DNA of 64,000 bases from a virus: positions 1 through 64,000 of the IMG/VR virus record IMGVR_UViG_3300037420_001736; one strand, 5' to 3'. The position numbers and the translations under genes are program-made. The notes under the pieces are model-generated. The model saw only the letters and a program-made list of their open reading frames with translations. It was not told where the DNA came from and made no database searches. This document shows positions 1-64,000 of this stretch, one piece after another; position 1 is the first letter of the stretch, and the number at the start of each line of letters is the position of its first letter.

Positions 1-1
1 G

Positions 2-1102: not shown

Positions 1103-1104
1103 CC

Positions 1105-3852: not shown

Positions 3853-3860
3853 GGACCACC

Positions 3861-4985
3861 ATGGCATTCCAGATCCGCGACTTCCGCTCGATCGTCGCCG
3901 GCTGCATCAATTGGATGAAGTCGACGACGACGAAGATCAACGACTACAACGTCGGCTCCGTCGCGCGCACGATCATCGAGGCGCCAGCGGCCGAGATGGA
4001 CGAGCTGTACCAGAACATCCTGATCGGCCTCAAGGAGGCGATTCCCGTCTCCGTCTACACCACCTTCGGCTTCGATCGCATCCCGGCCGAGGCCGCCAGC
4101 GGCGTGGTGCGCTTTTCCACCGGCGGCCCGCTGGCGACGGCGCCGATCGTGATCCAGCTGGGCACGGTGGTGCGGATCTCGGCCACCACGACGCCGTACG
4201 CGACGCTGGCCGCCGGCACCATCCAGATCGGCCAGTCCTACGTCGACATCCTGGTGTCAGCGCAAAGCGCCGGCGTGTCCGGCAACTGCGACGCCGGCGC
4301 GATCGACGAGCTGGTCAGCTCGATCACCGGCATCAACAGCGTCACCAATCCGTCGCCGCTGATCAACGGCCGCGACGAGGAGACCGACGACCAGCGTCGC
4401 ACGCGCTTTCGCGGCTATATCTCGACGCTGGCGCGCGGCACCAAGACCGCGGTCGAGTACGGCGCCAAGACCGCCAAGCTGGTCGACGCCAACGGCCTCA
4501 TCACCGAATACGTCGCCCATGCGTCGGTGATCGAGCCCTACGTGACCGACAGCACGCAGCCGATCAGCCTGGTCGACGTCTACGTCCACAACGGCGCCTC
4601 CGCGACATCGACCGAGCTGGTGGCCGAGGCGCAGCGGGTGGTCGACGGCTACTACGACGATGCCGGCAAGGCGGTGCCTGGCTGGAAGGCCGCCGGCGTC
4701 AAGTGCGTCGTCTCCGCGGCCTCCGACAAGGCGATCACGGTGACCGGCAACCTGACGGTGCAGACGGGCTACGTCGAGGCCGACGCGATCGCGGCCGCAA
4801 CGAATGCCGTGAAGGCCTACATCCAGGGCCTGGGCGTTGGCGAGACGGTGGTGCTGGCCGAGCTCATCGCGATCATCAAGCGCGACATCGTCGGGGTCTA
4901 CAACATCACGCTGAGCGCGCCGCTGGCCGACGTCACCTGCGCCATCAACGAGAAGGCCATTCCTGGCACGGTGACGCTGACATGA
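3861..4985 (+). CDS. Baseplate J-like protein
   Basis: 374 aa. N-terminus DYNVGSVARTIIEAPAAEMDELY is typical of the Baseplate_J family. Positioned after the gp25-like gene. Confidence 0.75.
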   Translation: MAFQIRDFRSIVAGCINWMKSTTTKINDYNVGSVARTIIEAPAAEMDELYQNILIGLKEAIPVSVYTTFGFDRIPAEAASGVVRFSTGGPLATAPIVIQLGTVVRISATTTPYATLAAGTIQIGQSYVDILVSAQSAGVSGNCDAGAIDELVSSITGINSVTNPSPLINGRDEETDDQRRTRFRGYISTLARGTKTAVEYGAKTAKLVDANGLITEYVAHASVIEPYVTDSTQPISLVDVYVHNGASATSTELVAEAQRVVDGYYDDAGKAVPGWKAAGVKCVVSAASDKAITVTGNLTVQTGYVEADAIAAATNAVKAYIQGLGVGETVVLAELIAIIKRDIVGVYNITLSAPLADVTCAINEKAIPGTVTLT

Positions 4986-12661: not shown

Positions 12662-13864
12662 TCAGGCGGCCGCCGGTTCTTCTTCGCGGCGCCTGGTCTT
12701 CCAGTTGACCGTGATCACCTCGGCCACCTTCTGCGCCACCTTGGCCTTCTCCGAGCCGCGGCCGTGGATGTAGCGCTCGGTGGTGCTCATCTGCTTGTGG
12801 CCCAGCTGGCCCTGGATCTGTTTCTGCGTCAGGCCGGCCTCGTGGCCGGTGGAGCCGACGGTGTGGCGCAGCGTGTGCGGCGTCGACTCCTCGGGCACGC
12901 CGGCGCGCCTGGCGATGCGCTTCCAGGGCTTCCACGGCGACGCCAGGCAGCAGCCCGGCTTGCGGCCCGGGATCAGCCACCGGCGGTCCTTGCCGTACAC
13001 CGCGTCGAGCTCGGCGATGATCTCCATCGCGATGTCGGGCAGCTGGATCGGCCGCTGGCCGACCTTGGAGTCCGGCAGCAGCAGCAGCTGGCGGTGCGCG
13101 TCGACCCAGCGCCGCTCGGCGGTGCGGATCTCGCTGTTGCGGCAGCCGGTGACCAGCCACAGGCGCACCAGCGCGGCCATCGCCAGGGGAATGTCCTGCT
13201 CGGCCACCAGCTCGTCGCAGGCGCGGTCGACGGCGCTGAACTGGTCCGGCGCCAGCACCAGGTCCTTCTGCCGCGTCTTGTACTTCTTCAGCCGGTAGCA
13301 GGGGTTGCTGTTCTGCGGCCGCCACTTCCACTCCTCGGCCAAGTTGAAGGCCTTGCCCAGCAGCGCCACGACCTGGTTGGCCGCTGACGGGGTCTGCACG
13401 AGCTCGCCCTGCAGCTTCAGCACGTCGGCCTTGTCGATCTCGGCCACTTTGCGCTGCGCCCACCTGGGGAGGATGTAGCGGCGCCAGGTGCCGTCGTCCT
13501 CCTTGGCGCTGCGCGGCTTCTTGAACGGCTCGGCCCACTCGCGCTGGTAGCGGTCGCGCAGGTCCTGGATCGTCGGCGCCTCGCGCGCCTCCTGGCGCTC
13601 GACGGCCGGGTCGCGGCCGTCGGCCACCTGGCCGAACACCTTGCGCGCCTTCTCGCGCGCCTTGTCGGGCGTGAGGTCGCAGCAGCGGGCGATGGTCATC
13701 TTGCGCGCGGTGCCATGCTGGTTGCGGTAGCGCACCACGAAGGTCTTGCGGCCGCTGGCCTGCACGCGCACACCGAACCCTGGCACCTCGCTGTCCCAGA
13801 CCCAGTGGTCGCCCTTCTCGGGCGTCGCGGCGTTGTCGACGATGGTCTTGTTGAGCTTCGGCAT
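12662..13864 (-). CDS. int: Tyrosine integrase (P4-type, N-terminal arm-binding domain)
   Basis: GGAGAA RBS before MPKLNK. WVWDSEVPGFGVRV arm-type N-terminus. Catalytic HTLRHTVGS...LGHKQMSTTERYIH. Confidence 0.9.
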   Translation of the reverse strand: MPKLNKTIVDNAATPEKGDHWVWDSEVPGFGVRVQASGRKTFVVRYRNQHGTARKMTIARCCDLTPDKAREKARKVFGQVADGRDPAVERQEAREAPTIQDLRDRYQREWAEPFKKPRSAKEDDGTWRRYILPRWAQRKVAEIDKADVLKLQGELVQTPSAANQVVALLGKAFNLAEEWKWRPQNSNPCYRLKKYKTRQKDLVLAPDQFSAVDRACDELVAEQDIPLAMAALVRLWLVTGCRNSEIRTAERRWVDAHRQLLLLPDSKVGQRPIQLPDIAMEIIAELDAVYGKDRRWLIPGRKPGCCLASPWKPWKRIARRAGVPEESTPHTLRHTVGSTGHEAGLTQKQIQGQLGHKQMSTTERYIHGRGSEKAKVAQKVAEVITVNWKTRRREEEPAAA

Positions 13865-13888
13865 CGGTTCTCCAAGTAGCTTCGAGCC

Positions 13889-13918
13889 CGGGCGCACTTC
13901 GGGCGCAGGTCGGGCGCA
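13889..13918 (+). promoter_or_regulatory. Three tandem CGGGCGCA boxes at exact 11-bp spacing
   Basis: CGGGCGCA at 13889, 13900 and 13911, just upstream of the int start. Confidence 0.6.
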
Positions 13919-28019: not shown

Positions 28020-28199
28020 CTAGCGCCAGGGCCGCGCACCCCAGACGTCGCGCCAGGCGTATTTCCACACTCGGAACCAGGTTGCCCAGCGCTCACGGAT
28101 CACGTCGTCAGTGTGGGCGGCCAACCCTTCGAGGATGAGCGCGATGACGATGCCGAGGCAGATGGTCCAGACGATCACTTCCATGGTGGGTTCCTTCAT
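28020..28199 (-). CDS. Small membrane protein
   Basis: MKEPTMEVIVWTICLGIVIALILEGL. ATGA overlap with the PAPS-reductase-like gene. Confidence 0.5.
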   Translation of the reverse strand: MKEPTMEVIVWTICLGIVIALILEGLAAHTDDVIRERWATWFRVWKYAWRDVWGARPWR

Positions 28200-29065
28200 G
28201 GCCGCAGCAGCTCGGCCTCGTCTTCGATTTCCTCGGCCTTCGCTTCTGCCATGTCGCTCCAGGCGAAGTTGCGGCCGAGGCCTTTGACCGTGTCCAGGCC
28301 GTGCTTGCCGTCGCGCGCGCCGCGCTCGATGTCCAGCGCGCGGTGGAACAGCACCGGGTGCGTGTCGCGCAGCCAGACGATCTCCGACTTCTTGCTGGCG
28401 GGGCAGAAGAAGCATGCGCTCTTGGGCGGCACCGGCAGGCCGACCGACTTGATGAGCTCGATGCAGCCCTCGCGATCCAGGTCCCACTCAGGCAGCGGGT
28501 ACCAGTATTCGTAGCGCGCCGCATCCTTGTGGCCGGCGGCCATCTTCTTGGCGCAGGCGCGGTCTGCCTTCAGGCGCCGCCTGGTGTCGGCCTTGCCGGC
28601 GTCGTAGCCGATCGCGCGCCGCACCTTCAGGCCGGCAGCCCAGGCTGCCTTCGCAGGCTCCCAGCTCTCCATCCACTTGTCGATCGGTGCGATCTTGAAC
28701 ACCAGCGAGCAGCTGTGCATGCCGAACGCCAGGCTGGGCAGCGTTTCGTTGGACAGGCACTTGCCTTCGAGCGTGTCGTACGGCGCCCTGGTGGGCACAT
28801 AGCGCACGATCGTGAGGTCAGGGAATCCGATGCGCGCCAGCCAGGCGCGGATCACTGGGATGTAGGCGTAGGTCTCGGGCTTCTCGCCGCCGGTGTCGGC
28901 GAACACGATCGCGTCGGGCCGGATGCCGCGGCGGTACATGCCCGCCAGCATCGCAGTGGAGTCCACGCCGATGCCGTACGAGACCACCAGCGGCGCGTCG
29001 TGCTCGTGCGGCACGCCGGCGAACAGGTCGCCAATCGCCGCGTGAATCGCACTCAAGTCGCTCAT
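28196..29065 (-). CDS. PAPS-reductase-family (PP-loop ATP pyrophosphatase-like) protein
   Basis: VVSYGIGVDSTAMLAGM...IVFADTGGEKPETYAYI (variant SGGxDS plus DTG). C-terminal ACFFCP. Confidence 0.75.
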   Translation of the reverse strand: MSDLSAIHAAIGDLFAGVPHEHDAPLVVSYGIGVDSTAMLAGMYRRGIRPDAIVFADTGGEKPETYAYIPVIRAWLARIGFPDLTIVRYVPTRAPYDTLEGKCLSNETLPSLAFGMHSCSLVFKIAPIDKWMESWEPAKAAWAAGLKVRRAIGYDAGKADTRRRLKADRACAKKMAAGHKDAARYEYWYPLPEWDLDREGCIELIKSVGLPVPPKSACFFCPASKKSEIVWLRDTHPVLFHRALDIERGARDGKHGLDTVKGLGRNFAWSDMAEAKAEEIEDEAELLRP

Positions 29066-50892: not shown

Positions 50893-52629
50893 ATGGACAA
50901 TGCCGCCTCCGTAGCGTTCAACCCTGGCGCCCCGGCCGATGAGCGCTATGACGCGCAGGCCGAGCTCCAGAAAGCCCACGCGCCGCGCTCGCTGGGCGAC
51001 CTGCTGATCCCGCCGGCCGAGCTGCAGCCGGTGATCGATCACATCCGCAACGACCTGGAGGAGCAGGCGATGACGAAGGCGCTGGCGAAGCGCAACGTCA
51101 TCCCCTTCCCGTCGACCGCGGTCAAGCAGCGCAAGCCCGGCATGCAGTCGGTCTGGCTGGACGACCTGCAGGTGCAGGTGATGGGCGACTGGTACGAGCG
51201 GCCCAGCGCCTTCAGCTTCGACATGATGCGCTCGATGGTCACGCAGACGCCGGTGCTCAACAGCGTGATCATGACGCGCCAGCGCCAGGTGCAGCGCTTC
51301 TGCCGCCCGCAGTCCGGCGGCAAGGGTCCGGGCTTCAAGATCGCGCTGAAGGACCAGGAGGCCCAGCCTGGCGACGACGAGAAGTCGTCCATGCTGCTGC
51401 TGCAGGACTTCTTCACACACTGCGGCTGGGAGAAGCGGCCGCGCCACCGCATGCGCCTGAAGCGCGACGACTTCGCCACCTTCATGGCGAAGCTCACGCG
51501 CGACACGCTGACCATGGACTCGATGCCGATCGAGACCGAGTGGAAGCGCGACAAGAGCCTGGGCCTGGACGGCATGTATGCGGTCGACGGCTCCACCATC
51601 CGCCTGTGCACCGAGAACGGCTACCGCGGCGACGACGAGATCGTCGCGCTGCAGGTGGTGCAGGGCAACATCCGCGCGGCCTACACCTGCGAGGACCTGG
51701 TCTACGTGCCGCGCAACCCGCTGACCGACGTGCTGGCCGGCGGCTACGGCCTGAGCGAGACCGAGCTGCTGGTGCGCACGGTGACGGGCTTCCTGAACGC
51801 CTTCACCTACAACACCAAGTATTTCGACTCCAACGCCATCCCCAAGGGGATGCTGCACCTGACCGGCAACTTCGACAGCACCGACATCGCGGCCTTCAAG
51901 CGCCAGTGGAACGCGATGGTCAAGGGCATCAACAACGCCTGGGCGCTGCCGGTGATGATCTCCAAGGACGCCGAGTCGAAAGCGGCCTTCGAGAACTTCG
52001 GCGTCGAGGTCAACGAGATGCTGTTCGGCAAGTGGATCAGCTTCCTGGTGAGCATGATCTGCGCGATCTACGGCATGGCGCCGGACGAGATCAACTTCGA
52101 GAGCTTCACCACCGGCACCAGTTCGCTGTCTGGCAGCGACACCGAGGAGAAGCTGATCAACTCGAAGGACAAGGGCCTGCGGCCGCTGCTGTCCTACTAC
52201 GAGAACCTGTTCAGCGACTATGTCGTCGCGGAGTACGGCGACAAGTATTGCTTCCGCTTCACCGGCCTGGACGACGAGGACCCGAAGGCGGTCGAGGAGC
52301 GCCGCAAGAACGGCATGACGTGGAACGAGTACCGCGCGCTCGACGACCTGCCGCCGGTCGAGGGCAAGCTGGGCGACGCGCCGATGAACCCGACGCTGAT
52401 TGGCGCCTGGCAGGCCGAGAACCAGCAGCCCGAGCAGGACTTCGGCCAGCCCGGCGCGATGCCGCCTGGCGAGGACGACGACGGCGAGGAGGGTGGCGAG
52501 GACTTCGGCGAGGCCGGCCCCGAGAACGACACCGGCGCCGACTTCGGCGAGGGTGACGACGACGCGCAACCGGGCCCGGACGAGCTCGCCAAGACCTTCG
52601 GCCTGCCGGTGTTCCGCCCCGAGCCATGA
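50893..52629 (+). CDS. Portal protein
   Basis: 578 aa, with an acidic G/D/E-rich C-terminus. Precedes the MuF-like gene. Called from size and position. Confidence 0.7.
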   Translation: MDNAASVAFNPGAPADERYDAQAELQKAHAPRSLGDLLIPPAELQPVIDHIRNDLEEQAMTKALAKRNVIPFPSTAVKQRKPGMQSVWLDDLQVQVMGDWYERPSAFSFDMMRSMVTQTPVLNSVIMTRQRQVQRFCRPQSGGKGPGFKIALKDQEAQPGDDEKSSMLLLQDFFTHCGWEKRPRHRMRLKRDDFATFMAKLTRDTLTMDSMPIETEWKRDKSLGLDGMYAVDGSTIRLCTENGYRGDDEIVALQVVQGNIRAAYTCEDLVYVPRNPLTDVLAGGYGLSETELLVRTVTGFLNAFTYNTKYFDSNAIPKGMLHLTGNFDSTDIAAFKRQWNAMVKGINNAWALPVMISKDAESKAAFENFGVEVNEMLFGKWISFLVSMICAIYGMAPDEINFESFTTGTSSLSGSDTEEKLINSKDKGLRPLLSYYENLFSDYVVAEYGDKYCFRFTGLDDEDPKAVEERRKNGMTWNEYRALDDLPPVEGKLGDAPMNPTLIGAWQAENQQPEQDFGQPGAMPPGEDDDGEEGGEDFGEAGPENDTGADFGEGDDDAQPGPDELAKTFGLPVFRPEP

Positions 52630-54245
52630 TCAAACCCAAGCTGCAGAAGCAGCCCCAGGCGCAGCCGCGCGACGTCGCACTCGGTGATGAGCTCTACGTG
52701 CACCACCGCGGCCAGCCGCACACCTGCCGCGTGGTGGCGCACGGCGCGCACGGCGTGACGGCCGAGATCGAGGGGCAGCATCACAAGGTCACCTGGGACA
52801 AGGTGCTCGGCCACAAGAGTCGCCGCATGCTGCGCTACGCGATCGCCGACCAGGGCGAGGACGGCATGATCCTGGAGGATGACGCCGGCACGCGGCGCTA
52901 CGTCGCCACCCCCAACGAAGCGAGTGAGGACCCCTACGTGGCGAAAGCGTTCGAGGGGCGGCGCGTCGCGCTGCTGCTGAAGGCCGAGGAACCTGGCGGC
53001 AGCGGCGCCGCGCCGCGCGCCGGCCTGGCGAAGAAGCAGATCACCGACCGCACCGGGCGCAGGCAGACCAAATGGGTGCGCACGAACAAGGACCAGCCGA
53101 AGCCGCGCCAGGCGGCCGCCGAGGATCCGCGCGGCGCGCAGCGCGGCTACGGCACGCACAACCTCGGCGCCGGCGACACCGTGCACTTCGCCGCCGGCGA
53201 CTACCAGGGCAGCGGCACGATCGTCGGCAAGCCGGGCGCCGACGGTGCGCACGTGAAGGACGCCAGCGGCCGCGTGCACCAGGTGCGCTGGAGCGAGGTG
53301 ACCGGCCACGAGCCGGCCGCTGATGTCGCAAAGCCCAAGGTGCAGCCGCAGGTGCGCGGCGAGCAGAAGCCGGTGCCGGCCGCCGAGTTCATCGCCAGCG
53401 ACTATGCCGCGCAGCACAACGACGCGGGCGTGACGGCCGAGGCCATCCTGGCGCAGTTCCCGGCCGACACGATGGAAAAGATCAGCGCCGTGCAAGAGCG
53501 CCTGCACAGCGTCGAGCAGACCATCGAGCTCTACAAGCAGGGCGACACCTACGACGACGAGCGCACGAAGATCCACCAGCGCATCTACGACCACTTCCTG
53601 TCGCCGCAGAAGGTCGAGGCGGCCACGCCGCCCGAGGGCCAGAAGCCGACGCTGACGATGCTTGGCGGCCGCGGCGGCTCCGGCAAGAGCTGGTTCGCCG
53701 GCCAGGTCTACGACCCGGGCAAGGCGATCGTCATCGACCCGGACGAAATCAAGGGCATGCTGCCCGAGTACGAGGGCTGGAACGCGCACCAGGTGCACGA
53801 GGAGTCGAGCGACATCACCAGCACCATCCTGCAGATCGCCGAGGAGCTGGGGCTGAACGTGGTGCTCGACGCGACGATGAAGACCGCCAAGAGCACGCTG
53901 GGGATGGCGAACAAGTTCAAGGCCAAGGGCTACCGGCTGGAGGCGCACTACATGCACCTGCCGCGGCAGGAGGCCGCCAAGCGCGCAGTGCAGCGCTTCC
54001 TCGGCAAGACCCAGCGCTACGTGCCGGTCGATGTGGTGCTGGGCAACACCGGCAACGAGGCAACCTTCGACCAGGTGCGCCAGCTGGCCGACAAGTGGTC
54101 GTTCCGCGACAACAACGTGCCGATGGGCCAGCAGCCGATCCTGATCAGCGAGAGCGGCAGCGGCGCCACGCCGGCGCAGCCTGGCGGCGGCCAGCCTTTG
54201 ACCAAATCCGAGCAAGCTGCGATCATCCTGTTCAGGAGAACGTGA
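52626..54245 (+). CDS. Zeta-toxin-like P-loop kinase domain protein with N-terminal repeat modules
   Basis: TLTMLGGRGGSGKSWF (Walker A) ...IVIDPDEIK...VVLDATM. Two ~45-aa repeats, each ending in ..H(K/Q)V(T/R)W..V.GH. Confidence 0.65.
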   Translation: MIKPKLQKQPQAQPRDVALGDELYVHHRGQPHTCRVVAHGAHGVTAEIEGQHHKVTWDKVLGHKSRRMLRYAIADQGEDGMILEDDAGTRRYVATPNEASEDPYVAKAFEGRRVALLLKAEEPGGSGAAPRAGLAKKQITDRTGRRQTKWVRTNKDQPKPRQAAAEDPRGAQRGYGTHNLGAGDTVHFAAGDYQGSGTIVGKPGADGAHVKDASGRVHQVRWSEVTGHEPAADVAKPKVQPQVRGEQKPVPAAEFIASDYAAQHNDAGVTAEAILAQFPADTMEKISAVQERLHSVEQTIELYKQGDTYDDERTKIHQRIYDHFLSPQKVEAATPPEGQKPTLTMLGGRGGSGKSWFAGQVYDPGKAIVIDPDEIKGMLPEYEGWNAHQVHEESSDITSTILQIAEELGLNVVLDATMKTAKSTLGMANKFKAKGYRLEAHYMHLPRQEAAKRAVQRFLGKTQRYVPVDVVLGNTGNEATFDQVRQLADKWSFRDNNVPMGQQPILISESGSGATPAQPGGGQPLTKSEQAAIILFRRT

Positions 54246-55079: not shown

Positions 55080-55342
55080 GCGGCGCCGTCGTGATCGCAC
55101 ACTGATCGCGGCCGCCGGAGCTTTCCTTTCGGCCGGTGGCTGCTGTGTGTGCTGAGAAGGCGCATCAGGGACCCCCAGCTGCGCGTGGGGTAGCGGCTTA
55201 AACACAACGCCAGCAGCAGATCACGGCGACACCCTCTGGGTGGGCCCTCCACGCCGGGGAGCTGCCGACCGAAGTTATGGGGCGGCCGCGTTGGTGGGGA
55301 CCGTGGCGCGGCCGCCCTGGTCGTGACTGCACGATCGGCAGC

Positions 55343-56497
55343 ATGGGCCTGTTCGTCGACCTGATCGCACTCTCCGAGGCGCGCACCAACGCGACGCTGG
55401 AGCTCATGTGCAAGGCCGAACACGGCGACGACGATGCCATCTGGCGCGAGCACGATTCGCCCTACATCCGCCGCCTGATCGAGCTGTTCACGCAGCGCGG
55501 CCTGATGCGCCTTGAGAGCTTCCGCACCGAACTCGTCGCCTGGCTCAAGGGCGAGCGCCACACGCACGCCGGCACCACGATGCCGCGCCCCGAGGGGTCA
55601 ATGCGCCTGTGGACGCCCGAGGAGCGCGGCCTGGTCAAGCTGTACCTGGAGACGCTGCCGCCCGAGCGCTGGACGCTGGACGACCACATGATGATGGTCG
55701 ACTACCTGGTGCAGCGCTACCTGCCCGAGAGCGAGATCCGCACCGAGGCCGAATGGCTGACGACGCGCGCCTCGCTGATGGGCCGCGTGCAGGCCAACCT
55801 GGAGAAGCTGTCGGCCGAGCAGGTCGACCAGGTGCTGCAGGCGCTGCCCACCACGGTGCGCGAGGCGCGCGAGCTCAAGCCGACGGCAAAGCAGCTGGCG
55901 GCCATGGACTTCGCGCGCGAGCGCGCCTGCGAGGCCGTCACGCGCCTGGCCGACGACGCGCGCCACCGCATGCGCTACGTGGTCGCGCAGGACGTCGAGC
56001 GCCGCGTGCTGCGCGTGCCAGACACCTCGCCGCAGGCGCTGGAGCAGCGGCTGTTCGACGAGTTCTCGACGCTCAACCGCGACATGCGGCGCATCGCGGT
56101 CACCGAGGCCGGCAACGCGGCGAACACGGGCTACATCGCCACGCTGCCGCCGGGCCGGCGCGTCAAGCGCACCGAGCAGTACCGCGGCGTGTGCGCCTGG
56201 TGCGCGCGCATCAACGGCCGCATCTTCACCGTCGTTGACCCCTCGAAGGCTGACAAGGACGGCGAGACGGAGGTGTGGGTCGGCAAGGACAACGTCGGCC
56301 GCTCGGCCGCGCCGCGCAAGCGCGTCGGCCAGCTGCTGGTCGAGCGCGAGCCGCACGAGCTGTACTGGGTGGCCTGCGGGACGCAGCACCCGCACTGCCG
56401 CGGCACGTGGCTGCCGGTGGCTGATGACCAGCCTGGGGATGACCCGCAATTCGCAGCATGGCTGAACCAGCTGCTCACGAAGAAGGAGCCAGCCTGA
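55343..56497 (+). CDS. MuF-like (SPP1 gp7 family) head morphogenesis protein
   Basis: Internal ATG MGLFVDLIAL. VTEAGNAANTGY...GVCAWCARINGRIFTV...GTQHPHCRGTW. Confidence 0.75.
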   Translation: MGLFVDLIALSEARTNATLELMCKAEHGDDDAIWREHDSPYIRRLIELFTQRGLMRLESFRTELVAWLKGERHTHAGTTMPRPEGSMRLWTPEERGLVKLYLETLPPERWTLDDHMMMVDYLVQRYLPESEIRTEAEWLTTRASLMGRVQANLEKLSAEQVDQVLQALPTTVREARELKPTAKQLAAMDFARERACEAVTRLADDARHRMRYVVAQDVERRVLRVPDTSPQALEQRLFDEFSTLNRDMRRIAVTEAGNAANTGYIATLPPGRRVKRTEQYRGVCAWCARINGRIFTVVDPSKADKDGETEVWVGKDNVGRSAAPRKRVGQLLVEREPHELYWVACGTQHPHCRGTWLPVADDQPGDDPQFAAWLNQLLTKKEPA

Positions 56498-57681
56498 TGC
56501 TGCTGCTGCTGAAGGCCCACGTGAAGGGCCACATGCGCGCGGGCGTGTTCATCAAGCCGCACGAGGACAAGCGCCGGCCGCAGGTGCTGCTGCGCCCCGG
56601 CGAGCACGTGCACGAGCACCAGCTGACGCTGTTCAACGAGGAGCTGCAGCCGGCGCCACCGACGTTCCACCGCGTCAAGCCGACAGCCGGCAAGCAGCCG
56701 GTGCCGATCGCGCCCGGCCCCGACCTGGCGAGCTACGACAAGGTGCTGGTCGGCTTCAGCGGCGGCAAGGACTCGATCGCCGCCGTGCTGGCGCTGCTGG
56801 AGAACGGCGTGCCGCCCGAGAAGATCGAGCTGCACCACCACGACATCGACGGTGAGGGCGCGACCTTCATGGACTGGCCCGTCACCAAGGACTACTGCCG
56901 CAAGTTCGCGGCCGCGCTGGGCATCCCGATCTACTTCAGCTGGCGCAAGGGCGGCTTCGAGCGCGAGATGATGCGCGACAACCAGCGCACTGCGCCGGTG
57001 GCGTTCGAGAAGCCGGACGGCACCGTCGGCGAGGCCGGCGGCCAGCACGGCCCGCTGGGCACGCGCAAGAAGTTTCCGCAGCAGTCGGCCAACCTCACCA
57101 CGCGCTGGTGCTCAGGCGCCCTCAAGGTCGACGTGATGGCCGCGGCTATCCGCAACCAGGACCGCTTCGATGACGCGCGCACCCTGGTGGTCACCGGCGA
57201 GCGCGCCGAGGAGAGCTCCAACCGCGCGCACTACAAGACCTTCGAGCCGCACCGTGCGCACAGCAGCAAGCGCCACGTCGACCAGTACCGCCCGGTGCAC
57301 GCCTGGAGCGAGCAACAGGTGTGGGATGTGATGCGCGAGCACGGCGTCGTGCCGCACCCGAGCTACCAGCTGGGCTACGGCCGGCTGTCGTGCCGGCACT
57401 GCATCTTTGCCAACCAGAACCAGATCGCGACCAACCAGGCGCTCTACCCAGAGAGCACCGGGAAGATCGCCGCGCGTGAGCAGGAGTTCGGCATCACGAT
57501 CCACCGCAAGGAGGACCTGATGACGCGCGCCAAGAAGGGCACGCCGTACCAGGCCGCGCTCGACAACCCGGAGATGGCCCGCCTGGGCGACTCCACCGTG
57601 TGGGACGTGCCGATCATCGTGCCCAAGGAGCAGTGGAAGCTGCCTGCGGGCGCGTTCGGCGAGAAGGATGGGCCATGCTGA
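56497..57681 (+). CDS. PP-loop / PAPS-reductase-like enzyme with N-terminal leader motif
   Basis: GAAGGAG RBS, TGATG overlap. Leader MLLLLKAHVKGHMRAGVFIKPHEDKRR. PP-loop VLVGFSGGKDSIAAVLAL. C-terminal LSCRHCIF. Confidence 0.75.
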   Translation: MLLLLKAHVKGHMRAGVFIKPHEDKRRPQVLLRPGEHVHEHQLTLFNEELQPAPPTFHRVKPTAGKQPVPIAPGPDLASYDKVLVGFSGGKDSIAAVLALLENGVPPEKIELHHHDIDGEGATFMDWPVTKDYCRKFAAALGIPIYFSWRKGGFEREMMRDNQRTAPVAFEKPDGTVGEAGGQHGPLGTRKKFPQQSANLTTRWCSGALKVDVMAAAIRNQDRFDDARTLVVTGERAEESSNRAHYKTFEPHRAHSSKRHVDQYRPVHAWSEQQVWDVMREHGVVPHPSYQLGYGRLSCRHCIFANQNQIATNQALYPESTGKIAAREQEFGITIHRKEDLMTRAKKGTPYQAALDNPEMARLGDSTVWDVPIIVPKEQWKLPAGAFGEKDGPC

Positions 57682-58288: not shown

Positions 58289-58444
58289 ATGACCCGCATC
58301 GGCTACATCATCCTCGGCGTGCGCCGCAACGGCCTGCCGATCGCGCCGTCCGAGCTCCACCGCGAGCAGTACAGCAACTGGCACCTGGTCGAGCAGCCCG
58401 ACGGCTCGCTGCGCTGGCGCGGCGAATGGGTGGTGCAGCCGTGA
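58289..58444 (+). CDS. Small hypothetical protein
   Basis: MTRIGYIILGVRRNGLPIAP. 51 aa. Confidence 0.4.
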   Translation: MTRIGYIILGVRRNGLPIAPSELHREQYSNWHLVEQPDGSLRWRGEWVVQP

Positions 58445-59295
58445 TCGCGCTGCTGCTGAAGTCGGCCGTTGCCGCCTACACCCGCCGCGACGGCACCTTC
58501 GTGCCGCCTCATGTTGACAGCCGCACCAAGCAGCAGCGCATGGACGACGACATGGAGGCGCAGGCCGCCTGGCTGACCGCCATGGCGCGCTCGCACGGTC
58601 ACGCCGACGTCGACGCGATGCTCAGCGACGATCCGGCGCTGTTCACGCGCCTGGCCGAGCAGTGGCGCGAGCAGCACCCGGAGCTCGCGAAGGCGATCGA
58701 TCACCTGGCGAAGTCGCACCCGGTGCTGCAGGGGGCCACGCGCGACAAGCGCGACTACAGCCGCGCGCTGATCATGCTGGGCAAGCGCCGCGGCGACCAG
58801 CTGCTGTCGCCTGGCGAGCCGCTACCCGAGGAGGCCGCCACCGGCGAGTACAAGAAGCCCACGGTGAAGTGGGCCGGCCTCACGCTGGCGATCGAGAACC
58901 CGGCCGGCAGCGTGCGCCGCGGCACCAACCGCCATGGCGTCACCTGGGAGGTGCGCTACAAGTTCGCCTATGGCGAGATCCTGGGCAGCATGGGTGTCGA
59001 CGGCGACCCGGTCGATTGCTACCTCGGCCCCAACATGGACGGCGCGCCGATGGTCTACGTCGTGCACCAACGCCAGGTCGGCAACTGGAGCGAGTACGAC
59101 GAGGACAAGTGCATGCTCGGCTTCGACAGCGAGGAGGATGCGCGCCAGGCTTTTCTGTCCTGCTACAACGACCCGCGATTCCTCGGTCCCATCACCGCGA
59201 TGCCGGTTGGTGAGTTCGTCACCAAGGTGCGCGCGACGCGCGAGGCCCCGGCAATGATCAAGGCGCTGCTGTTCAGGCTGCCAGCAGCTGGTTGA
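58441..59295 (+). CDS. Inorganic-pyrophosphatase-like protein with N-terminal leader motif
   Basis: GTGA overlap. Leader VIALLLKSAVAAYTRRDGTFVPPHVDSR. YKFAYGEILGSMGVDGDPVDCYLG parallels PPase YPANYGFIP..DGDPVDVLV. Confidence 0.6.
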   Translation: MIALLLKSAVAAYTRRDGTFVPPHVDSRTKQQRMDDDMEAQAAWLTAMARSHGHADVDAMLSDDPALFTRLAEQWREQHPELAKAIDHLAKSHPVLQGATRDKRDYSRALIMLGKRRGDQLLSPGEPLPEEAATGEYKKPTVKWAGLTLAIENPAGSVRRGTNRHGVTWEVRYKFAYGEILGSMGVDGDPVDCYLGPNMDGAPMVYVVHQRQVGNWSEYDEDKCMLGFDSEEDARQAFLSCYNDPRFLGPITAMPVGEFVTKVRATREAPAMIKALLFRLPAAG

Positions 59296-59662
59296 CCGCG
59301 GCGATGATGACGGGAATCGTCATCGCGATCAGCTCGCGCCGGAAAGCACCCGGCGTGACGCCGGTGTGACGCTTGAACGCCTCATTGAAGTGGCTCTGGC
59401 TGGAGAAGCCACACCGATAGGCGACGTCACCCAACTTGATGGACTGGTCACGCAACAGGCGCTTTGCGACGTCGATGCGGCGCCAGCACACATATCGCAT
59501 CGGCGACTTGCCGACGCACTTAGCGAATCTTCGGCTGAAGTGAAATTGGCTCATAAATGCCACGCGGGCCAATTCATCCAGTGTAATGCGCTCACCAATA
59601 TTGGTATCGATATATTCTAAAGCTCTAGACACGCCGCGTGGCATTGCATTTGTTTTGGTCAT
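59273..59662 (-). CDS. Stand-alone AraC/XylS-family HTH activator (MarA/SoxS-like), moron
   Basis: LDELARVAFMSQFHFSRRFAKCVGKSPMRYVCWRRIDVAKRLL...YRCGFSSQSHFNEAFKRHTGVTPGAFRR. 129 aa. Locally low GC. Confidence 0.85.
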   Translation of the reverse strand: MTKTNAMPRGVSRALEYIDTNIGERITLDELARVAFMSQFHFSRRFAKCVGKSPMRYVCWRRIDVAKRLLRDQSIKLGDVAYRCGFSSQSHFNEAFKRHTGVTPGAFRRELIAMTIPVIIAAVNQLLAA

Positions 59663-59818
59663 GACTCCGGTCTGATTCGGTTAATCCAAATCTAGACTCT
59701 GAATATATTGATAATGTGAATAGGTGAAAGAGATTTATTCTCTCCGTCGGCGCGCGCGGCTGCTGCCGATTCGATCGTGACACGATGATCCCGGGACGCA
59801 CCCCACGGGCCGTCCCTG

Positions 59819-62800
59819 ATGATCATCTTCCTCAAGAAGTCCCAGTTCGCTCTGTTCGATGCGCCGGTGCGCGTGGCGCAGCATGTGCGCAAGGACGGCA
59901 CCGTCGTGGCGCCGCACACGCGCGTGCAGAAGGTGCGCGGCCAGCACCCGCCGTCACATCACCAGGCGCAGGGCGACCTGTTCGGCGACGCGGCGCCGCG
60001 ACAGCACCAGCTGTTCGCCGAGCAGGAGGCCAAGCAGGCGATCGAGCAGGCGAAGAAGCCCGAGCGCGAGAGCCGCGGCCCGGCTGCCAGCGACGCCTGG
60101 GTGAACGAAGGCAAGAGCGCCGACGAGCTGATCCGCGACAAGGCTCACAGGCTGGGCGCCGAGCTGGCCGGCATCATCACCGAGGAGGCGAGCGAGAAGG
60201 ACTTCGCGCCGACCGAACTCCCGAAGGTGATCGCGCAGTGGGCCTCCGAGAACAAGGTGCCCGCCGACGAGCTGCGCCAGGCCGTTTTGGCCTCGCTCGG
60301 CCGGTATGACCTGAGCGAAGGGCGCAAGGCGCAGATTCGCCGCGCGCTGGATCCGACGGCGAAGAAGCCGGCCGCCAATGGCGCTGGATTCGGCACGCTG
60401 TACCACGGCACGCCGAAACCGTTCGATGCCTTCCGCGACCCGACTGGCAGCGCTGACCGCGGCGCCGGCTACAACCACCAGGGCCCGGCCGTCTACCTCA
60501 CGGACGACCCGCACGGCTACGCGCGCTTCTTCGCGCGCGAGGGCGGCGCGAAGCTGGCGTACCAGCTGCAGCGCGAGGGGAAGAAGGACGAGGCTGCACA
60601 GGCCTTCAGTGGCTGGGGCCACGTGCTGTCTGTCAAGCTGGCAGACGACGCGCGCATCCTGGAGCTCGACAAGGCGCCGGCCGAGGTCAAGGACCTGTTC
60701 GAGCGCTCGGTCGGCCATCCCGAGGTCGGCCAGAAGCTGCGCGAGGTGGTGCTGGCGCTGGGCTACGCCGGCCTGGCGTTCACCGAGCCGAACCACCCCG
60801 AGGGCTGGCCGACCAAGGCCGGCGCGCGCACGGTCGCTGTCTATCGGCAGGACAAGGCGATCATCACCGGCGACAAGCCGGCCGCCGAGTACGACCCGAA
60901 GAAGAAACCGGCGCCGACGACGCAGGACGCGATCGACGAGCTCGCCGCCAAGGTCACGCGCTACGCCTCCGGCCTGTCGCGCGCGAAGGACTTCGAGGCC
61001 GCCGGCCACGGCTCGCACCCGGTGGGCGTCGACGTCGGCCAGCTGTCCGACAAGGCGATGGACCAGCTCGCCGACCTGGTGACGCGGCTGCACACGCCGG
61101 TCTTCGTCGACAGCGGCGCCTACAGCCTGTTCCGCTCGCGCGAGAAGCGCCAGGCCGCCGGCGAGGACGTCGAGCCGCTGGACTTCAGCCAGGTGCTGGA
61201 GCGCTACGACCAGCTCACCGACAAGATCGGCGAGAAGAACGAGGCCGAGGAGGACCTGCCCAAGCCCATCCTGGTGATGCCCGACGTCATGGGCGACCAG
61301 GCGGCATCGCTCGACGAGATCAAGAAGCACGCGAAGTGGATCAACGTCGAGTGCAGCTTCGACGTCGCGCGGCCGCTGATCGCGATGCCCAAGGGCGACA
61401 TGAGCCTGACGGCCTACTACGACGCCGTGGTCGAGGCGATCGGCACCAGCCGCTTCATCGTCGGCATCCCGGCTGTGAGCGGCGCCTGGACGCCGGAGCA
61501 GGTCACTGCGTTCCTGCGCGAGCGCGAGCCTGCGCGCGTGCACTTCCTCGGCGCGCTGCACGAGAGCCGGCTGAACAAGTGGCTGGCCGCCGTGGTCGAG
61601 TCAGGCCACCAGCCCGAGATCACCGCCGACGCCAACCCGCTGCGCAGCCAGGTGCTGCCGCGCGACGGCACCAAGCTGGCGCCGGGCGAGCGCGCCAAGA
61701 AGATCACCGACAAGCTGGGCAAGCCGGCCCGAGCGCAGGAGCTCAAGCGCGTGATCGAGCAGCACGGCGGCGAGGATGGCGTGCGCCGCATGCTCGCCGG
61801 CGCCGACTTCGAGCAGCAGCAGCGCTTCATCGGCCTCATTTCCGACCTGTCGGGCAAGCCGCAGATCGAGGTGCGGCACCAGTACGGCCTGGGTGACGGG
61901 CCGGTCGAGGGCGACCGCAAGGTCGAGAACGGAGTCACCTATGTCCTGCGAAACGGACGCTGGCACCGAGCCGGCGATGATGCCGCGGCCGTCGCGCCGG
62001 CGCCGGCGGCTGCCGACACGGGCGCCGACCGCCTGGTGCTGGTCGCGTGCGGCGCCGCTAAAAAGGACGGCGCGCATTCTGCACGGCAGCTTTACACCGG
62101 CGCACTGGCTGGCGTCCTGAACAAGCACCTGCGCCCCGGCAGCGCCGACGTCGCGATCATCTCGGCCAAGCACGGCCTGGTGCACGGCGACCAGGTGATC
62201 GAGAGCTACGACCAGCGCATGACGCCGGAGCGTGCGAAGGAGCTGGCCGCGCAGCCGGTGGACCTGTCGCGCTTCCATGGCAAGCGCTACCGCGAGGTGT
62301 TCATCGCCGGCGGCGCCGACTACCGCGCCGTCGGCGCGGCCTACGTCAAGCAGCTGCAGGACGCCGGCATCGTGGCGGCCGACGCCAAGGTCGACGCCAC
62401 CAGCGGCGGCATCGGCGAGATCCGCGGCCAGCTGGGCGCGTACCTGCGCAGCCTGACGGATGACAAGCTCGATCCGAATCAGGTGCTTTTCCATGGCACA
62501 GGGGCTGACTTCTCCAAGTTCAACGGGCCGGCCTACTTCACGATCAACCGGGGTGTCGCTGAAGACTCTGCCCGCGCTACGGCCGAAGCCTATGGCGGCA
62601 ACGCGCGCGTGATCAGTGCTCGGCTCAGCCTGCGCAATCCGGCGATCGTCTCCGCTGATGAGATCGAAGGCCTGAAGTACGACGACGCCGCTATGCGGCG
62701 TCTGCGAGAAGCCGGGCATGACGGCGCGATGCGGGCTGACCTGCAGGAGGTGTTGGCGTTCGATCCATCGTCTATCGAAACGGTCGGGTCTGAACCGCTT

Positions 62801-64000
62801 TCGCTGCCGGGCCCCACGCGCGCCATCACGCAGGACGAGCTGCGCGCGGCCGCCGAGCGCGCGCCGCACAACCGCGCGGCGCCGTTCGGCGTGCCGGCCG
62901 GCATCAGCAAGGGCGCGCGCCGCGACATCAACGCGCGCGTCGCCCAGCTGGTGGCCGACGGCCAGGTCGACCGCGAGCTGATGCGCCAGTACAGCGGCAA
63001 CGGCGGCTGCGGCGACAGCCTGAACGAGTATTACACCGACCCCGCAGTGGCCCGCGCGATGTGGGACACCATCGGCCGCCTGGGCCTCACGCACGGCACC
63101 GCGCTGGAGCCCAGCTGCGGCACCGGCGTGTTCCTGCACACCGCGCCGGCGGGTTTCCGCGTCACCGGCGTCGAGCTCGATCCGGTCAGCTCGGCCTGCG
63201 CCACCGCGCTGCACGGCGATCGGCACGAGGTGCACACGGCCAGCCTGGAGCGCTTCGCCACCGCCGACAACCGCCAGTTCGACGTCGTCATCGGCAACCC
63301 ACCGTACGGCCCGCGCGGCTTCCTGGCGAAGGACGACAAGGTCGGCATCAGCACGGCCGAGGCCTACTTCACCGACACCGCGCTGGACAAGTGCAAGCCG
63401 GGCGGCATCGTCGCGCTGGTGGTGCCCACCGGCATCATGGACAGCCGCACGAACCTGGCGCTGCGCCGCGAGCTGCTGCGCAAGGGCCAGTTCCTGGGCG
63501 CGCAGCGCATGCCCAACACCGCGTTCGAGCACAGCCACACCGAGGTGACGACCGACGTCGTCTTCCTGCGCAAGCGGCCCGACGACGTCGCCGGGGCGCT
63601 GACGCTGGCCGACGACGAGACGCTGCAGAAGCTGGGCGTGTGGGACGAGGAGTTCCTGGCCGGCACCTACTTCACCGGCCGCGGCGCGCACAACGTGCTG
63701 GGCACGATGGAGGCCGGCTGGCGCGCGAAGGCCGGCATGGGCAACGACATCACCGTCAACGGCTCGATGCAGGGCGTGCCCGAGGCGATCGCCGAGTTCG
63801 TGCCGGATCCGGCCAGCGCCGCGCCGGGCGAGCTGACGGTGCAGCAGGTGGTCGAGGCGCTGCCCGAGCACGAGCGCGACCGCGCGCTGCTGGCGGCCTC
63901 GCGCCTGCCCTACGCCAACACCGCCAAGGTGGGTGACACCAAGGTGGTCGACGGCGTGCAGTACGTGCTGCAGGGCGACCCGCCGCGCTGGCACCGCGTC
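59819..64000 (+). CDS. Giant polyvalent protein (3' partial, at least 1394 aa): leader, two ART-like domains, unknown modules, N6-adenine methyltransferase
   Basis: I translated this frame by hand and it is open from the ATG at 59819 to the window end. It is absent from the track because there is no stop. LYHGTPKPF..AVYLTDD (about 60398). FVDSGAYS (61108). LVLVACGAAKK (about 62035). LFHGTGADF..AYFTIN (about 62488). EPSCGTGVF and VVIGNPPYG (63287). Confidence 0.8.
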   Translation, partial: MIIFLKKSQFALFDAPVRVAQHVRKDGTVVAPHTRVQKVRGQHPPSHHQAQGDLFGDAAPRQHQLFAEQEAKQAIEQAKKPERESRGPAASDAWVNEGKSADELIRDKAHRLGAELAGIITEEASEKDFAPTELPKVIAQWASENKVPADELRQAVLASLGRYDLSEGRKAQIRRALDPTAKKPAANGAGFGTLYHGTPKPFDAFRDPTGSADRGAGYNHQGPAVYLTDDPHGYARFFAREGGAKLAYQLQREGKKDEAAQAFSGWGHVLSVKLADDARILELDKAPAEVKDLFERSVGHPEVGQKLREVVLALGYAGLAFTEPNHPEGWPTKAGARTVAVYRQDKAIITGDKPAAEYDPKKKPAPTTQDAIDELAAKVTRYASGLSRAKDFEAAGHGSHPVGVDVGQLSDKAMDQLADLVTRLHTPVFVDSGAYSLFRSREKRQAAGEDVEPLDFSQVLERYDQLTDKIGEKNEAEEDLPKPILVMPDVMGDQAASLDEIKKHAKWINVECSFDVARPLIAMPKGDMSLTAYYDAVVEAIGTSRFIVGIPAVSGAWTPEQVTAFLREREPARVHFLGALHESRLNKWLAAVVESGHQPEITADANPLRSQVLPRDGTKLAPGERAKKITDKLGKPARAQELKRVIEQHGGEDGVRRMLAGADFEQQQRFIGLISDLSGKPQIEVRHQYGLGDGPVEGDRKVENGVTYVLRNGRWHRAGDDAAAVAPAPAAADTGADRLVLVACGAAKKDGAHSARQLYTGALAGVLNKHLRPGSADVAIISAKHGLVHGDQVIESYDQRMTPERAKELAAQPVDLSRFHGKRYREVFIAGGADYRAVGAAYVKQLQDAGIVAADAKVDATSGGIGEIRGQLGAYLRSLTDDKLDPNQVLFHGTGADFSKFNGPAYFTINRGVAEDSARATAEAYGGNARVISARLSLRNPAIVSADEIEGLKYDDAAMRRLREAGHDGAMRADLQEVLAFDPSSIETVGSEPLSLPGPTRAITQDELRAAAERAPHNRAAPFGVPAGISKGARRDINARVAQLVADGQVDRELMRQYSGNGGCGDSLNEYYTDPAVARAMWDTIGRLGLTHGTALEPSCGTGVFLHTAPAGFRVTGVELDPVSSACATALHGDRHEVHTASLERFATADNRQFDVVIGNPPYGPRGFLAKDDKVGISTAEAYFTDTALDKCKPGGIVALVVPTGIMDSRTNLALRRELLRKGQFLGAQRMPNTAFEHSHTEVTTDVVFLRKRPDDVAGALTLADDETLQKLGVWDEEFLAGTYFTGRGAHNVLGTMEAGWRAKAGMGNDITVNGSMQGVPEAIAEFVPDPASAAPGELTVQQVVEALPEHERDRALLAASRLPYANTAKVGDTKVVDGVQYVLQGDPPRWHRV

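Follow-up and report, generated by a model that had tools for sequence, protein, structure and literature searches.

What kind of protein joins two domains that resemble ADP-ribosyltransferases (ARTs), a TIM barrel, a DUF6884 domain and a DNA methyltransferase in a single reading frame? The question is raised by the end of a 64,000-nucleotide stretch of viral DNA, positions 1 to 64,000 of IMG/VR record IMGVR_UViG_3300037420_001736 (the window), where a frame begins at position 59819 on the plus strand and is still open at position 64000. An original prediction, made from the sequence alone, had taken its product for an injected anti-restriction or host-takeover protein. Most domains of the polyvalent, DarB-like head proteins have no assigned chemistry. 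Here we report that the frame encodes the N-terminal portion of a polyvalent protein of the DarB type, whose central barrel represents a new family, uncatalogued in Pfam, PHROGs and NCBIfam. The polyvalent DarB-like class, the ART-PolyVal domain, DUF6884 and the methyltransferase were already known; what is new is the barrel family with its links, and the family of the first ART domain (ART1). As an explanation of the whole, we consider it reasonably probable that this is a DarB-type effector of a temperate myovirus, packaged in the head and ejected, which would modify DNA and carry ART activity in its second ART domain (ART2).

Is the frame real? It contains 1,394 codons and no stop, and is cut by the end of the window. 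Because it runs off that end, it is missing from the list of open reading frames (ORFs), where two antisense ORFs shadow it (59954-61561, 535 aa, and 61601-63994, 797 aa), just as the original prediction described. An in-frame stop lies upstream at 59786-59788, and the ATG at 59819 is the first start codon thereafter. The same ATG was chosen by an independent gene call on the public contig Logan SRR35148586_312882, and the resulting N-terminus agrees with the annotated start of gp027 of Bordetella phage PHB04 and with the ORF start of a Paraburkholderia homologue (locus L003). The Logan contig (8.3 kb), the sole public one, is identical to the window across 8,315 bp. It covers codons 1-1,030, where it ends, and neither a frameshift nor a stop breaks the frame in this second assembly. 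GC content at third and second codon positions (GC3 0.93, GC2 0.46) is like that of the other called genes of the window (68% GC), and GC3 stays at the coding level along the whole frame. The motifs named in the original prediction all lie where it had placed them (Table 1), and profile searches give family-level statistical support to four modules. The frame and its modules are not due to chance.

The methyltransferase places the protein among known ones. Pfam N6_Mtase and Eco57I match residues 1066-1266 above their cutoffs, and motif I (EPSCGTG) precedes motif IV (NPPY), which is the gamma-class order; the gamma-class N6-adenine methyltransferase that had been predicted is thus confirmed. 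Its PHROG matches include phrog_11801 (E 7.5e-110) and phrog_10089, 'DarB-like antirestriction' (E 7.8e-40), and the PHROG families matched are 2,269-4,647 positions long. Just upstream, where DarB-like proteins have LPD36, no profile matches. A stretch with SGNGGCGD stands at the right place and is conserved in PHB04 gp027; by its position and its resemblance to the motif described in PMC5512222, the region is a candidate LPD36. Polyvalent proteins combine several unrelated effector domains in one polypeptide, are encoded with the packaging and late genes of phages or with conjugation genes, and are delivered into the host together with the DNA. Here a leader is followed, all in one frame, by five domains in the order ART1, barrel, DUF6884, ART2 and methyltransferase, and the gene lies in the portal/terminase head module, with Zeta-toxin and InPase genes upstream and with synteny to PHB04. 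In phage P1 the Dar proteins, DarB included, lie inside the head and are ejected together with the DNA, which DarB shields in cis from type I restriction (PMC5512222, PMC12810830). The DarB-like PHROG matches, the similarity to PHB04 gp027 and the head-module location all support the idea of an injected anti-restriction or host-takeover protein.

The closest annotated relative, PHB04 gp027 (YP_009792693.1), is a single protein of 2,097 aa with methyltransferase and helicase parts, annotated as 'DNA methyltransferase'. Residues 1006-1394 of the window protein are 65% identical to its residues 280-672, and the leader is 62% identical to its residues 1-50; the approximately 950 residues between these parts have no counterpart in gp027. 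Beyond its methyltransferase part gp027 goes on for another ~1,400 residues, among them a P-loop-like motif, ADVGLGKT. Next after it come an Ulx-like anti-restriction gene and a helicase of 1,518 aa, and gp027 itself lies between the portal and the head protease/major head protein. The Paraburkholderia homologue, 1,155 aa long, shares the leader (54% identity) and residues 372-879 of the window protein (63%). ART domains are missing from it, its methyltransferase is a different, small one, and a separate following gene encodes a 1,523-aa SNF2-type helicase. The protein is therefore built from modules, with variable cargo between a leader that is conserved and a methyltransferase of the DarB type.

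Several smaller parts complete the scaffold. The leader (MIIFLKKSQFALFDAPVRVAQHVRKDGTVVAPHTRVQKV...) is shared with both relatives, and the domains that follow it differ; it is a putative capsid-targeting tag. Such a role would match that of the N-terminus of P1 DarB, which directs packaging. The leader core, R(K/R)DGTxVxPH, is also found at the N-terminus of the neighbouring InPase protein and may be a common packaging tag. Between leader and ART1 lies a linker with a small region of no assigned family (zero Pfam matches), part of which, residues 83-180, matches the barrel protein P0018 (E 7e-7). After the barrel comes a small helical module, 'HGG...QQQRF...SDLSG', a C-terminal extension of a barrel subfamily that also follows the barrel in P0002-P0004, P0008, P0009, P0013, P0016 and P0076; residues 60-109 of PHB04 gp027 are related to it. 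A hairpin, GDxKVxxGVxYVL...RWHR, occurs twice (GDRKVENGVTYVLRNGRWHR and GDTKVVDGVQYVLQGDPPRWHR). The two copies match each other and the modules in PHB04 gp027 and the Paraburkholderia protein, bearing out the recurrence noticed earlier, and the hairpin is found nowhere else among the 150 best barrel representatives. In gp027 it stands at residues 650-671, before the helicase part of that protein. Linkers rich in Pro, Ala and Lys separate the modules.

The module of most interest is the barrel. An exhaustive HMMER search of 1.84 billion representatives (clusters at 50% identity) found at least 582 barrel representatives at E <= 1e-3, 204 of them at E <= 1e-10. Among the best 150 of the 582, 61 are no longer than 450 aa and 73 exceed 1,000 aa, reaching 7,235 aa; the giant proteins scanned carry LPD1, LPD38 or InPase domains. 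No member has a Pfam match above noise, and no PHROG or NCBIfam model covers the family. An AlphaFold2 (AF2) model built from a 40-sequence alignment has eight strands alternating with helices (pLDDT 96.7, pTM 0.92). Its Foldseek matches in the Protein Data Bank (PDB) are all TIM barrels, generic ones with a query-normalized TM-score (TMq) of about 0.5, the best being sugar isomerases/epimerases, aldolases and AP endonuclease 2. A library of viral structures holds one close relative, an 877-aa 'ART-PolyVal-like domain-containing protein' (TMq 0.74, root-mean-square deviation 2.0 A). Searched against PDB sequences, the barrel profile matched only SSB, which we judged spurious.

Which superfamily does the barrel belong to? 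The original prediction had found the FVDSGAYS motif faintly reminiscent of TGT/DpdA-type transglycosylases. The family motifs FVDSGAF, PDxVGDQ, VPLQxG, RxHxLG and SxDANxLR come in the same order as the motifs of the TGT superfamily. Four residues, Asp431, Asp489, His575 and Asp604, are each invariant in 140-142 of 142 domains (Asp431 in 141, Asp489 in 142, Asp604 in 140), and in the model each lies at the C-terminal end of a strand (3, 4, 7 and 8) or just beyond it. They align with the DSGAF, LD, HGFG and DSSSW residues of DpdA; for Asp489 and Asp604 the alignment to LD and DSSSW is permissive or collinear only, not significant alone. In the published DpdA structure the general acid, Asp95, lies at strand 3 with Phe99 at +4, and the nucleophilic Asp at strand 8; in the superfamily a second Asp serves for base recognition. 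In the barrel family, Phe or Tyr stands at +4 from Asp431 in 139 of 142 domains.

Profile comparison points the same way. Against seven phage DpdAs (9g, Baskent_P4_1, RHEph04, VpKK5, Bipper, Rosebush and Mufasa8), the 142-domain family scores 95.7% in HHalign (E 8.8e-9) and the 40-sequence alignment 96.2% (E 2.4e-9); reversed, column-shuffled and unrelated profiles give 0.1-0.2%. Against four bacterial TGTs the family scores 8.3% (E 0.004). In the same test phage DpdA against bacterial TGT, a true but distant relationship, scores 1.6%. Classical tRNA-TGT membership is unsupported, with 4.5% against the single E. coli Tgt in addition to the 8.3% above. The structural zinc motif of TGT and bacterial DpdA, CxCx2Cx22H, is found in 0 of 142 barrels, 0 of seven phage DpdAs and four of four bacterial TGTs; because phage DpdAs also lack it, its absence does not speak against kinship with phage DpdA. 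One barrel-family member weakly matches DUF6610, which is DpdA4. The barrel is probably a distant DpdA-like member of the TGT superfamily, judging by these motifs and profiles. ParB-like genes adjoin two singleton phage DpdAs (Rosebush gp1/gp2, locus L025; Mufasa8 gp90/gp91, L026), and they also adjoin or lie near standalone barrel genes (L032, L027).

The company that the barrel keeps bears on its role. In the window protein it is followed by DUF6884, as had been suggested from the LVLVACGAAKK stretch: Pfam PF21818 matches at 49.5-54.8 bits (cutoff 30; E 6e-13 to 1e-14) and phrog_5935 at E 2e-25, and both signature motifs, CxxxK and (L/I)SAxxG, are present. DUF6884 has a YaaA-like fold for which DNA binding and base flipping are predicted (PMC11701544). 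Barrel and DUF6884 are kept as a block in the ART-less Paraburkholderia protein, at the 63% identity given above, and are adjacent in P0003 (582 aa), P0017 and P0111. Separate genes repeat the pattern. DUF6884, barrel and N6-adenine methyltransferase follow one another in L034/L035. Elsewhere the barrel precedes a 1,717-aa N6 methyltransferase with SNF2 helicase and then ParB (L032); stands between Mom and a SNF2-like helicase followed by a C5 methyltransferase (L027); precedes RecJ, a C5 methyltransferase and a UvrD-like helicase (L036); or has Dam about 3 kb away (L028). The fusion in the window thus repeats a recurring gene neighbourhood, which makes the strongest case for an anti-restriction role of the barrel on DNA. 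The gene context as a whole points to DNA modification for anti-restriction. In the last-named locus, a metagenomic phage contig, a dGTP_diPhyd_N gene (PF18909) lies at 6671-6991, two genes from the standalone barrel.

The two ART-like domains differ in state. ART2 matches Pfam ART-PolyVal (PF18760) over residues 889-961 at 28.2 bits (E 3.6e-6), below the 31.2-bit cutoff. Its weak tblastn matches all fall within giant phage proteins, one of them an N4-like virion RNA polymerase. Six of the matched regions, when fetched, were all bona fide ART-PolyVal domains (37-133 bits), and against a profile of these six ART2 scores 98.5% in HHalign (E 2.2e-15; reversed control 0.2%). When ART2 alone was used in a word-indexed search, no homologue came up. 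Aligned with the six, ART2 shares all conserved blocks, (Y/F)HGT, Y(F/L)T, NP, G(Y/H)DG and xEhhhF(D/S)P; the loop before the Tyr strand is absent. The ART-PolyVal family is described as H-Y-D, not H-Y-E, with His in strand 1, Tyr in strand 2 and the catalytic Asp in strand 5 (PMC5512222). The GYDG Asp, as the sole invariant Asp, would be that residue; the published description does not give the strand-5 motif. With this proviso ART2 is, by its conserved blocks, a genuine ART-PolyVal domain with a predicted intact H-Y-D site. The original prediction had seen two ARTs of the H-Y-E class, and of this the kinship to ARTs stood for both domains and the H-Y-E assignment did not.

ART1 is the divergent copy. 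Eight homologues were found among 5.8e9 proteins, all standalone, 207-302 aa long and 46-56% identical. The resulting family scores 96.1% in HHalign against the six true ART-PolyVal domains (E 3.4e-9 over 144 columns; reversed controls 0.1-0.2%). Pfam ART-PolyVal gives ART1 13 bits, and six of the nine family members reach at best E 0.002. ART1 retains His196 and Tyr226. All eight standalone homologues have the GYDG Asp as well; the window copy alone has Ala317 in its place. Opposite Glu977 of ART2, in xEhhhF, ART1 has Thr338, which is invariant across its family, so that the original prediction had aligned the two copies correctly; Asp345 in the nearby 'YRQD' is not conserved. With Ala317 for the Asp and Thr338 for the Glu, ART1 is left without a catalytic acid whichever of the two is catalytic. 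The case for a degenerate first copy, which the original prediction had built on the Thr338 position alone, is therefore stronger than was argued there. An invariant EPNxPEGW insert (Glu323, Glu328) could conceivably supply an alternative acid. The window ART1 is likely inactive.

Other identities were considered for ART1. Its AF2 model (pLDDT 84.4) has RES/PARP-type fold matches. The top Foldseek matches are mostly Xre-RES toxins, PARP1/2/4 and NatT, all at E >= 4e-3 and TMq 0.41-0.47. A RES-toxin identity, suggested by a UniRef cluster label and by the fold matches 9r35 and 6gw6 (E 4e-3 to 3e-2), was rejected; none of the nine family members matches Pfam RES. The top fold match, chain 9k3a_B of the cyanophage A4 pre-ejectosome (E 4e-3, TMq 0.47), is weak and was not used. 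The A4 paper describes an ejection protein, gp28, with a lytic transglycosylase, an M23 peptidase and an unassigned alpha+beta domain, and describes no ART. A match of the ART1 profile to HIV-1 protease over 38 residues (LRqAVLdaGyDGiaFxEpNxPEGW, window residues 300-330) was judged to be chance: its per-domain E is ~0.15, tethered-dimer entries inflate the whole-sequence E, and the window does not conserve the 'DAG' Asp. A tblastn search of phages with ART1 found nothing. Megablast against plasmids was likewise empty. Single-sequence PDB searches with ART1, with the barrel plus linker and with DUF6884 plus ART2 gave nothing meaningful.

How might these modules work together? We propose that the giant protein would be made together with the head proteins and loaded into the procapsid by its conserved leader. 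It would be ejected into the cell with the DNA and there act mainly on DNA. The methyltransferase, which beyond the window probably runs on into an SNF2-type helicase or acts together with one, would methylate the incoming genome in cis and so let it escape restriction, as proposed for P1 DarB. The barrel and DUF6884 would form a second conserved DNA-modification cassette, in which DUF6884 may present a flipped nucleotide to the barrel. Asp431 as general acid/base and Asp604 as nucleophile would then break the glycosidic bond, and the base would be exchanged or removed; any incoming base would be host-supplied. ART2 could use NAD+ to ADP-ribosylate a host target. ART1, having lost both candidate catalytic acids, is most likely a binding or scaffold module.

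Not everything favours this proposal. The C-terminal end of the protein lies outside the window, and in the Paraburkholderia relative a gene of its own encodes the helicase. The DpdA match of the barrel is statistically fragile: its significance depends on one stretch of about 26 residues, and largely on DSGAF. With the 15-residue DSGAF block removed HHalign falls to 2.2% (E 0.02), and barrel residues 101-267 alone score 3.1% against phage DpdA. Neither TGT nor DpdA is among the top 50 PDB Foldseek matches; in the viral structure library a mycobacteriophage DpdA reaches just rank 49 (E 0.03). Pfam TGT does not match the window protein even at E <= 10. Where DpdA has its base-recognition His the window has Pro524, and the family has Gln (126), Pro (9) or His (7); that His is also absent in DpdA2. 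No FolE, QueC, QueD or QueE was found in the window, in loci L001 and L003 (tblastn) or in six standalone-barrel neighbourhoods; linkage to 7-deazaguanine genes is not obligatory, and singleton DpdAs exist. Finally, the barrel also occurs in the protein with an ART-PolyVal domain from the viral library.

Much of this would be expected if the barrel were a TIM-barrel enzyme of some other chemistry, working on a sugar phosphate, a nucleotide or an ADP-ribose- or NAD-derived compound in support of the ARTs, with a DSGAF motif that is convergent or very remotely inherited. The generic PDB fold matches, the loss of significance without one motif block, the ART-PolyVal domain in the closest viral structural relative, the missing deazaguanine synthesis genes and the unconserved His all fit such an enzyme. 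We nonetheless find it unlikely. The Paraburkholderia homologue keeps barrel and DUF6884 without any ART, and standalone barrels adjoin DNA methyltransferases, helicases, Mom, RecJ and ParB, not ARTs or NAD enzymes. The invariant Asp/Asp/His/Asp set is collinear with that of DpdA and lies at the strand ends given above, and the match to phage DpdA (96%) lies far above that of phage DpdA to bacterial TGT in the same test. The TGT/DpdA link that the original prediction had marked as weak and speculative proved its best lead: the module is a TIM barrel with a DpdA-like active-site layout, and the DSGAF block is the main statistical support. A fuller version of the DpdA-like reading is a tentative proposal. 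In it the family would be a sixth branch of DpdA/TGT which, in contrast to every known DpdA, enters with the virion as part of polyvalent proteins and in other genomes is encoded beside methyltransferase-helicase genes; with DUF6884 to flip the base, it would exchange or excise a base of DNA at entry, possibly with a base other than the known 7-deazaguanines.

Two further alternatives concern the protein as a whole. The ARTs might modify DNA bases, like DarT, pierisin or Scabin, and not host proteins, so that the whole protein would be directed at phage or host DNA. Every other identifiable module is indeed DNA-directed, ART2 sits directly between DUF6884 and the methyltransferase, and the H-Y-[EDQ] clade includes the DNA-modifying DarT (PMC9503650). 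Yet neither ART has specific similarity to DarT or other DNA-ARTs (the folds nearest ART1 being RES, PARP and NatT), the published inference for ART-PolyVal is protein modification (PMC5512222), and the ARTs are dispensable add-ons in relatives, all of which makes this improbable. It is more improbable still that the frame is not one acting polypeptide, either because the fusion is a delivery vehicle processed into separate enzymes or because an assembly artefact has joined neighbouring genes. Polyvalent proteins have been proposed to be processed into functional units (PMC5512222), the linkers between the modules would suit such processing, and relatives spread the same modules over separate genes. 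But Pfam and PHROG searches of the 1,394 residues revealed no peptidase domain, and processing would leave the functional assignments unchanged. As for an artefact, the first 1,030 codons are the same to the base in two independent assemblies, GC3 is at the coding level throughout, and PHB04 gp027 is annotated as one protein.

We therefore return to the DarB-type effector with its DpdA-like barrel. 7-Deazaguanine insertion is regarded as a post-replicative process carried out by enzymes made after infection. If the barrel proves to be a DNA transglycosylase or glycosylase, phages would bring a finished base-modifying enzyme with them into the cell, and there would be a pre-replicative, protein-borne route of DNA modification to anti-restriction. 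DUF6884 would gain a concrete functional partner, and the barrel family would become a new marker for finding modified phage DNA. The same protein also offers a natural contrast between an intact (ART2) and a decayed (ART1) ART-PolyVal domain.

The rest of the window is consistent with this setting (Table 1). It is a temperate myovirus-type phage or prophage: temperate because a tyrosine integrase is present, and in a permuted or prophage gene order because tail genes stand at the start and head genes at the end. The host is most likely a high-GC beta-proteobacterium. The order portal, Zeta protein, 406-aa ORF, InPase protein and giant protein is kept in phage PHB04 and in a prophage of a Paraburkholderia metagenome-assembled genome. 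The 406-aa ORF is 54-58% identical to its counterparts at the same place, between Zeta and InPase, in PHB04 (gp030) and the Paraburkholderia prophage. InPase and Zeta toxin are domains of the polyvalent-effector type that here form separate head-module proteins. The AraC-type gene is absent from this place in PHB04, and together with the AT-rich island this suggests that the gene is controlled separately or was inserted in the manner of a moron. The intergenic region, 59663-59818, is likely a control region; it has no match to the sigma-70 consensus, and a promoter and terminator scan of it was empty. The unrelated locus in which the barrel gene lies next to Mom and a C5 methyltransferase (L027) encodes homologues of both PP-loop proteins of the window, at 46-47% identity. 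The link between barrel and PAPS-reductase-like genes is thus recurrent.

Table 1. Positions of features in the window and of motifs and modules in the giant protein (nucleotides count from the first letter of the window unless stated otherwise)
Feature	Nucleotides	Residues	Strand	Basis or marks
Tail-tube initiator, baseplate J and tail-fibre genes	2-8 kb			
Endolysin-like gene	9.1 kb			
Tyrosine integrase with Arm DNA-binding domain	12662-13897		-	
Helicases, exonuclease VIII, primase, RusA	15-32 kb			
PAPS-reductase-like (PP-loop) protein	28196-29065		-	
Large terminase	44844			
Portal	50893			
Zeta toxin gene	52626-54245		+	PF06414, E 2e-23
406-aa ORF	55277-56497		+	No Pfam or PHROG family
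PAPS-reductase-like (PP-loop) protein	56458-57681		+	Within head-effector gene run
InPase gene	58426-59295		+	PF18823, E 1e-39
AraC-type regulator, 129 aa, divergent from giant gene	59273-59662		-	HTH_18/HTH_AraC on identical public gene call; phrog_7620 transcriptional regulator
Intergenic region with AT-rich island	59663-59818		.	GC 0.23-0.28 at 59680-59720 against 0.68 for the genome
DarB-type polyvalent protein, ORF of at least 1,394 aa	59819-64000		+	Open frame, GC3, same start in homologues
N-terminal leader	59819-59983	1-55	+	Identity to PHB04 gp027 and Paraburkholderia homologue
Linker and small region	59984-60370	56-184	+	Match to P0018
ART1, divergent ART-PolyVal-like domain	60371-60898	185-360	+	HHalign, AF2 model
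LYHGT	60398	194	+	Motif location in translation
AVYLTDD		224	+	Motif location in translation
ARTVAVY		336	+	Motif location in translation
DpdA-like (beta/alpha)8 barrel	60920-61720	368-634	+	FVDSGAY Asp431, MPDVMGDQ Asp489, HFLG His575, ADAN Asp604
FVDSGAYS	61103	429	+	Motif location in translation
Small helical module	61721-61903	635-695	+	C-terminal extension of barrel subfamily
Hairpin copy 1	61910-61969	698-717	+	Matches copy 2, PHB04 gp027 and L003 modules
YVLRNGRWHR	61940	708	+	Motif location in translation
DUF6884 domain	62021-62458	735-880	+	CxxxK (Cys744..Lys748), (L/I)SAxxG (Ile781-Ser-Ala-Lys-His-Gly786)
LVLVACGAAKK		739	+	Motif location in translation
ART2	62471-62818	885-1000	+	His892, Tyr906, Asp968 (GHDG), Glu977; Pfam, HHalign
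LFHGT	62486	890	+	Motif location in translation
AYFTIN		905	+	Motif location in translation
LQEVLAFD		975	+	Motif location in translation
Pre-methyltransferase region (SGNGGCGD...YYTDP), LPD36 position	62834-63013	1006-1065	+	65% identical to PHB04 gp027 equivalent
Gamma-class N6-adenine DNA methyltransferase, DarB type	63014-63808	1066-1330	+	Pfam, PHROG matches
EPSCGTG		1097	+	Motif location in translation
NPPY	63296	1160	+	Motif location in translation
Hairpin copy 2	63932-63997	1372-1393	+	Same module in PHB04 gp027
YVLQGDPPRWHR	63962	1382	+	Motif location in translation
Homologues of the two PP-loop proteins in locus L027	1-798 and 5074-6063 of L027			

How does the protein compare with known systems? 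Like P1 DarB and the DarB-like methylase-helicase proteins (PMC5512222), it is a giant head-module protein with a gamma-class N6-adenine methyltransferase containing NPPY and a helical region in the LPD36 position; its helicase part, if fused, would lie beyond the window end (residue 1394). In the DarB-type dyad the methyltransferase is EcoKI/TaqI-like with NPP(Y/F), LPD36 with a GxGU motif stands N-terminal to it, and an SF2/SNF2 helicase is fused at the C-terminal side. The arrangement in PHB04, with giant protein, Ulx-like gene and helicase in the head module, resembles the P1 dar locus. PHB04 gp027 has the leader and the methyltransferase part in common with the window protein, but lacks ART1, the DpdA-like barrel, DUF6884 and ART2.

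Members of the ART-PolyVal family (PF18760; Tox-ART-HYD2 clade) are typically found in polyvalent proteins, singly or as several copies, as is the case here. ART2 has all of the family's conserved blocks and the H-Y-D residues, and differs in its score below the Pfam cutoff and its missing loop. ART1 represents a separate small family that is otherwise only standalone, with the EPNxPEGW insert and Thr for Glu. DUF6884 (PF21818; B. subtilis YfjM, distantly related to YaaA) matches its family in score and in both motifs, but in this case it lies inside a phage polyvalent protein and is paired with the barrel, a pairing that is not in the Pfam description.

Phage DpdAs are DNA guanine/7-deazaguanine transglycosylases of the TGT superfamily, which replace guanine in DNA by 7-deazaguanine. 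With phage DpdA (DpdA1 type, for example phage 9g AHN84519.1) the barrel shares the TIM fold, DSGAF at the end of strand 3, the collinear Asp/His/Asp residues, the lack of the zinc motif and the presence of ParB-like genes nearby. It differs in having no significant similarity outside DSGAF and in having Gln or Pro for the base-recognition His. It is not linked to preQ0 genes, and is found instead within giant polyvalent proteins or beside DUF6884 and methyltransferases. We found no description in the literature of a DpdA-type domain in polyvalent or DarB-like proteins, and the barrel is not among the five described DpdA subfamilies, bDpdA and DpdA1-4.

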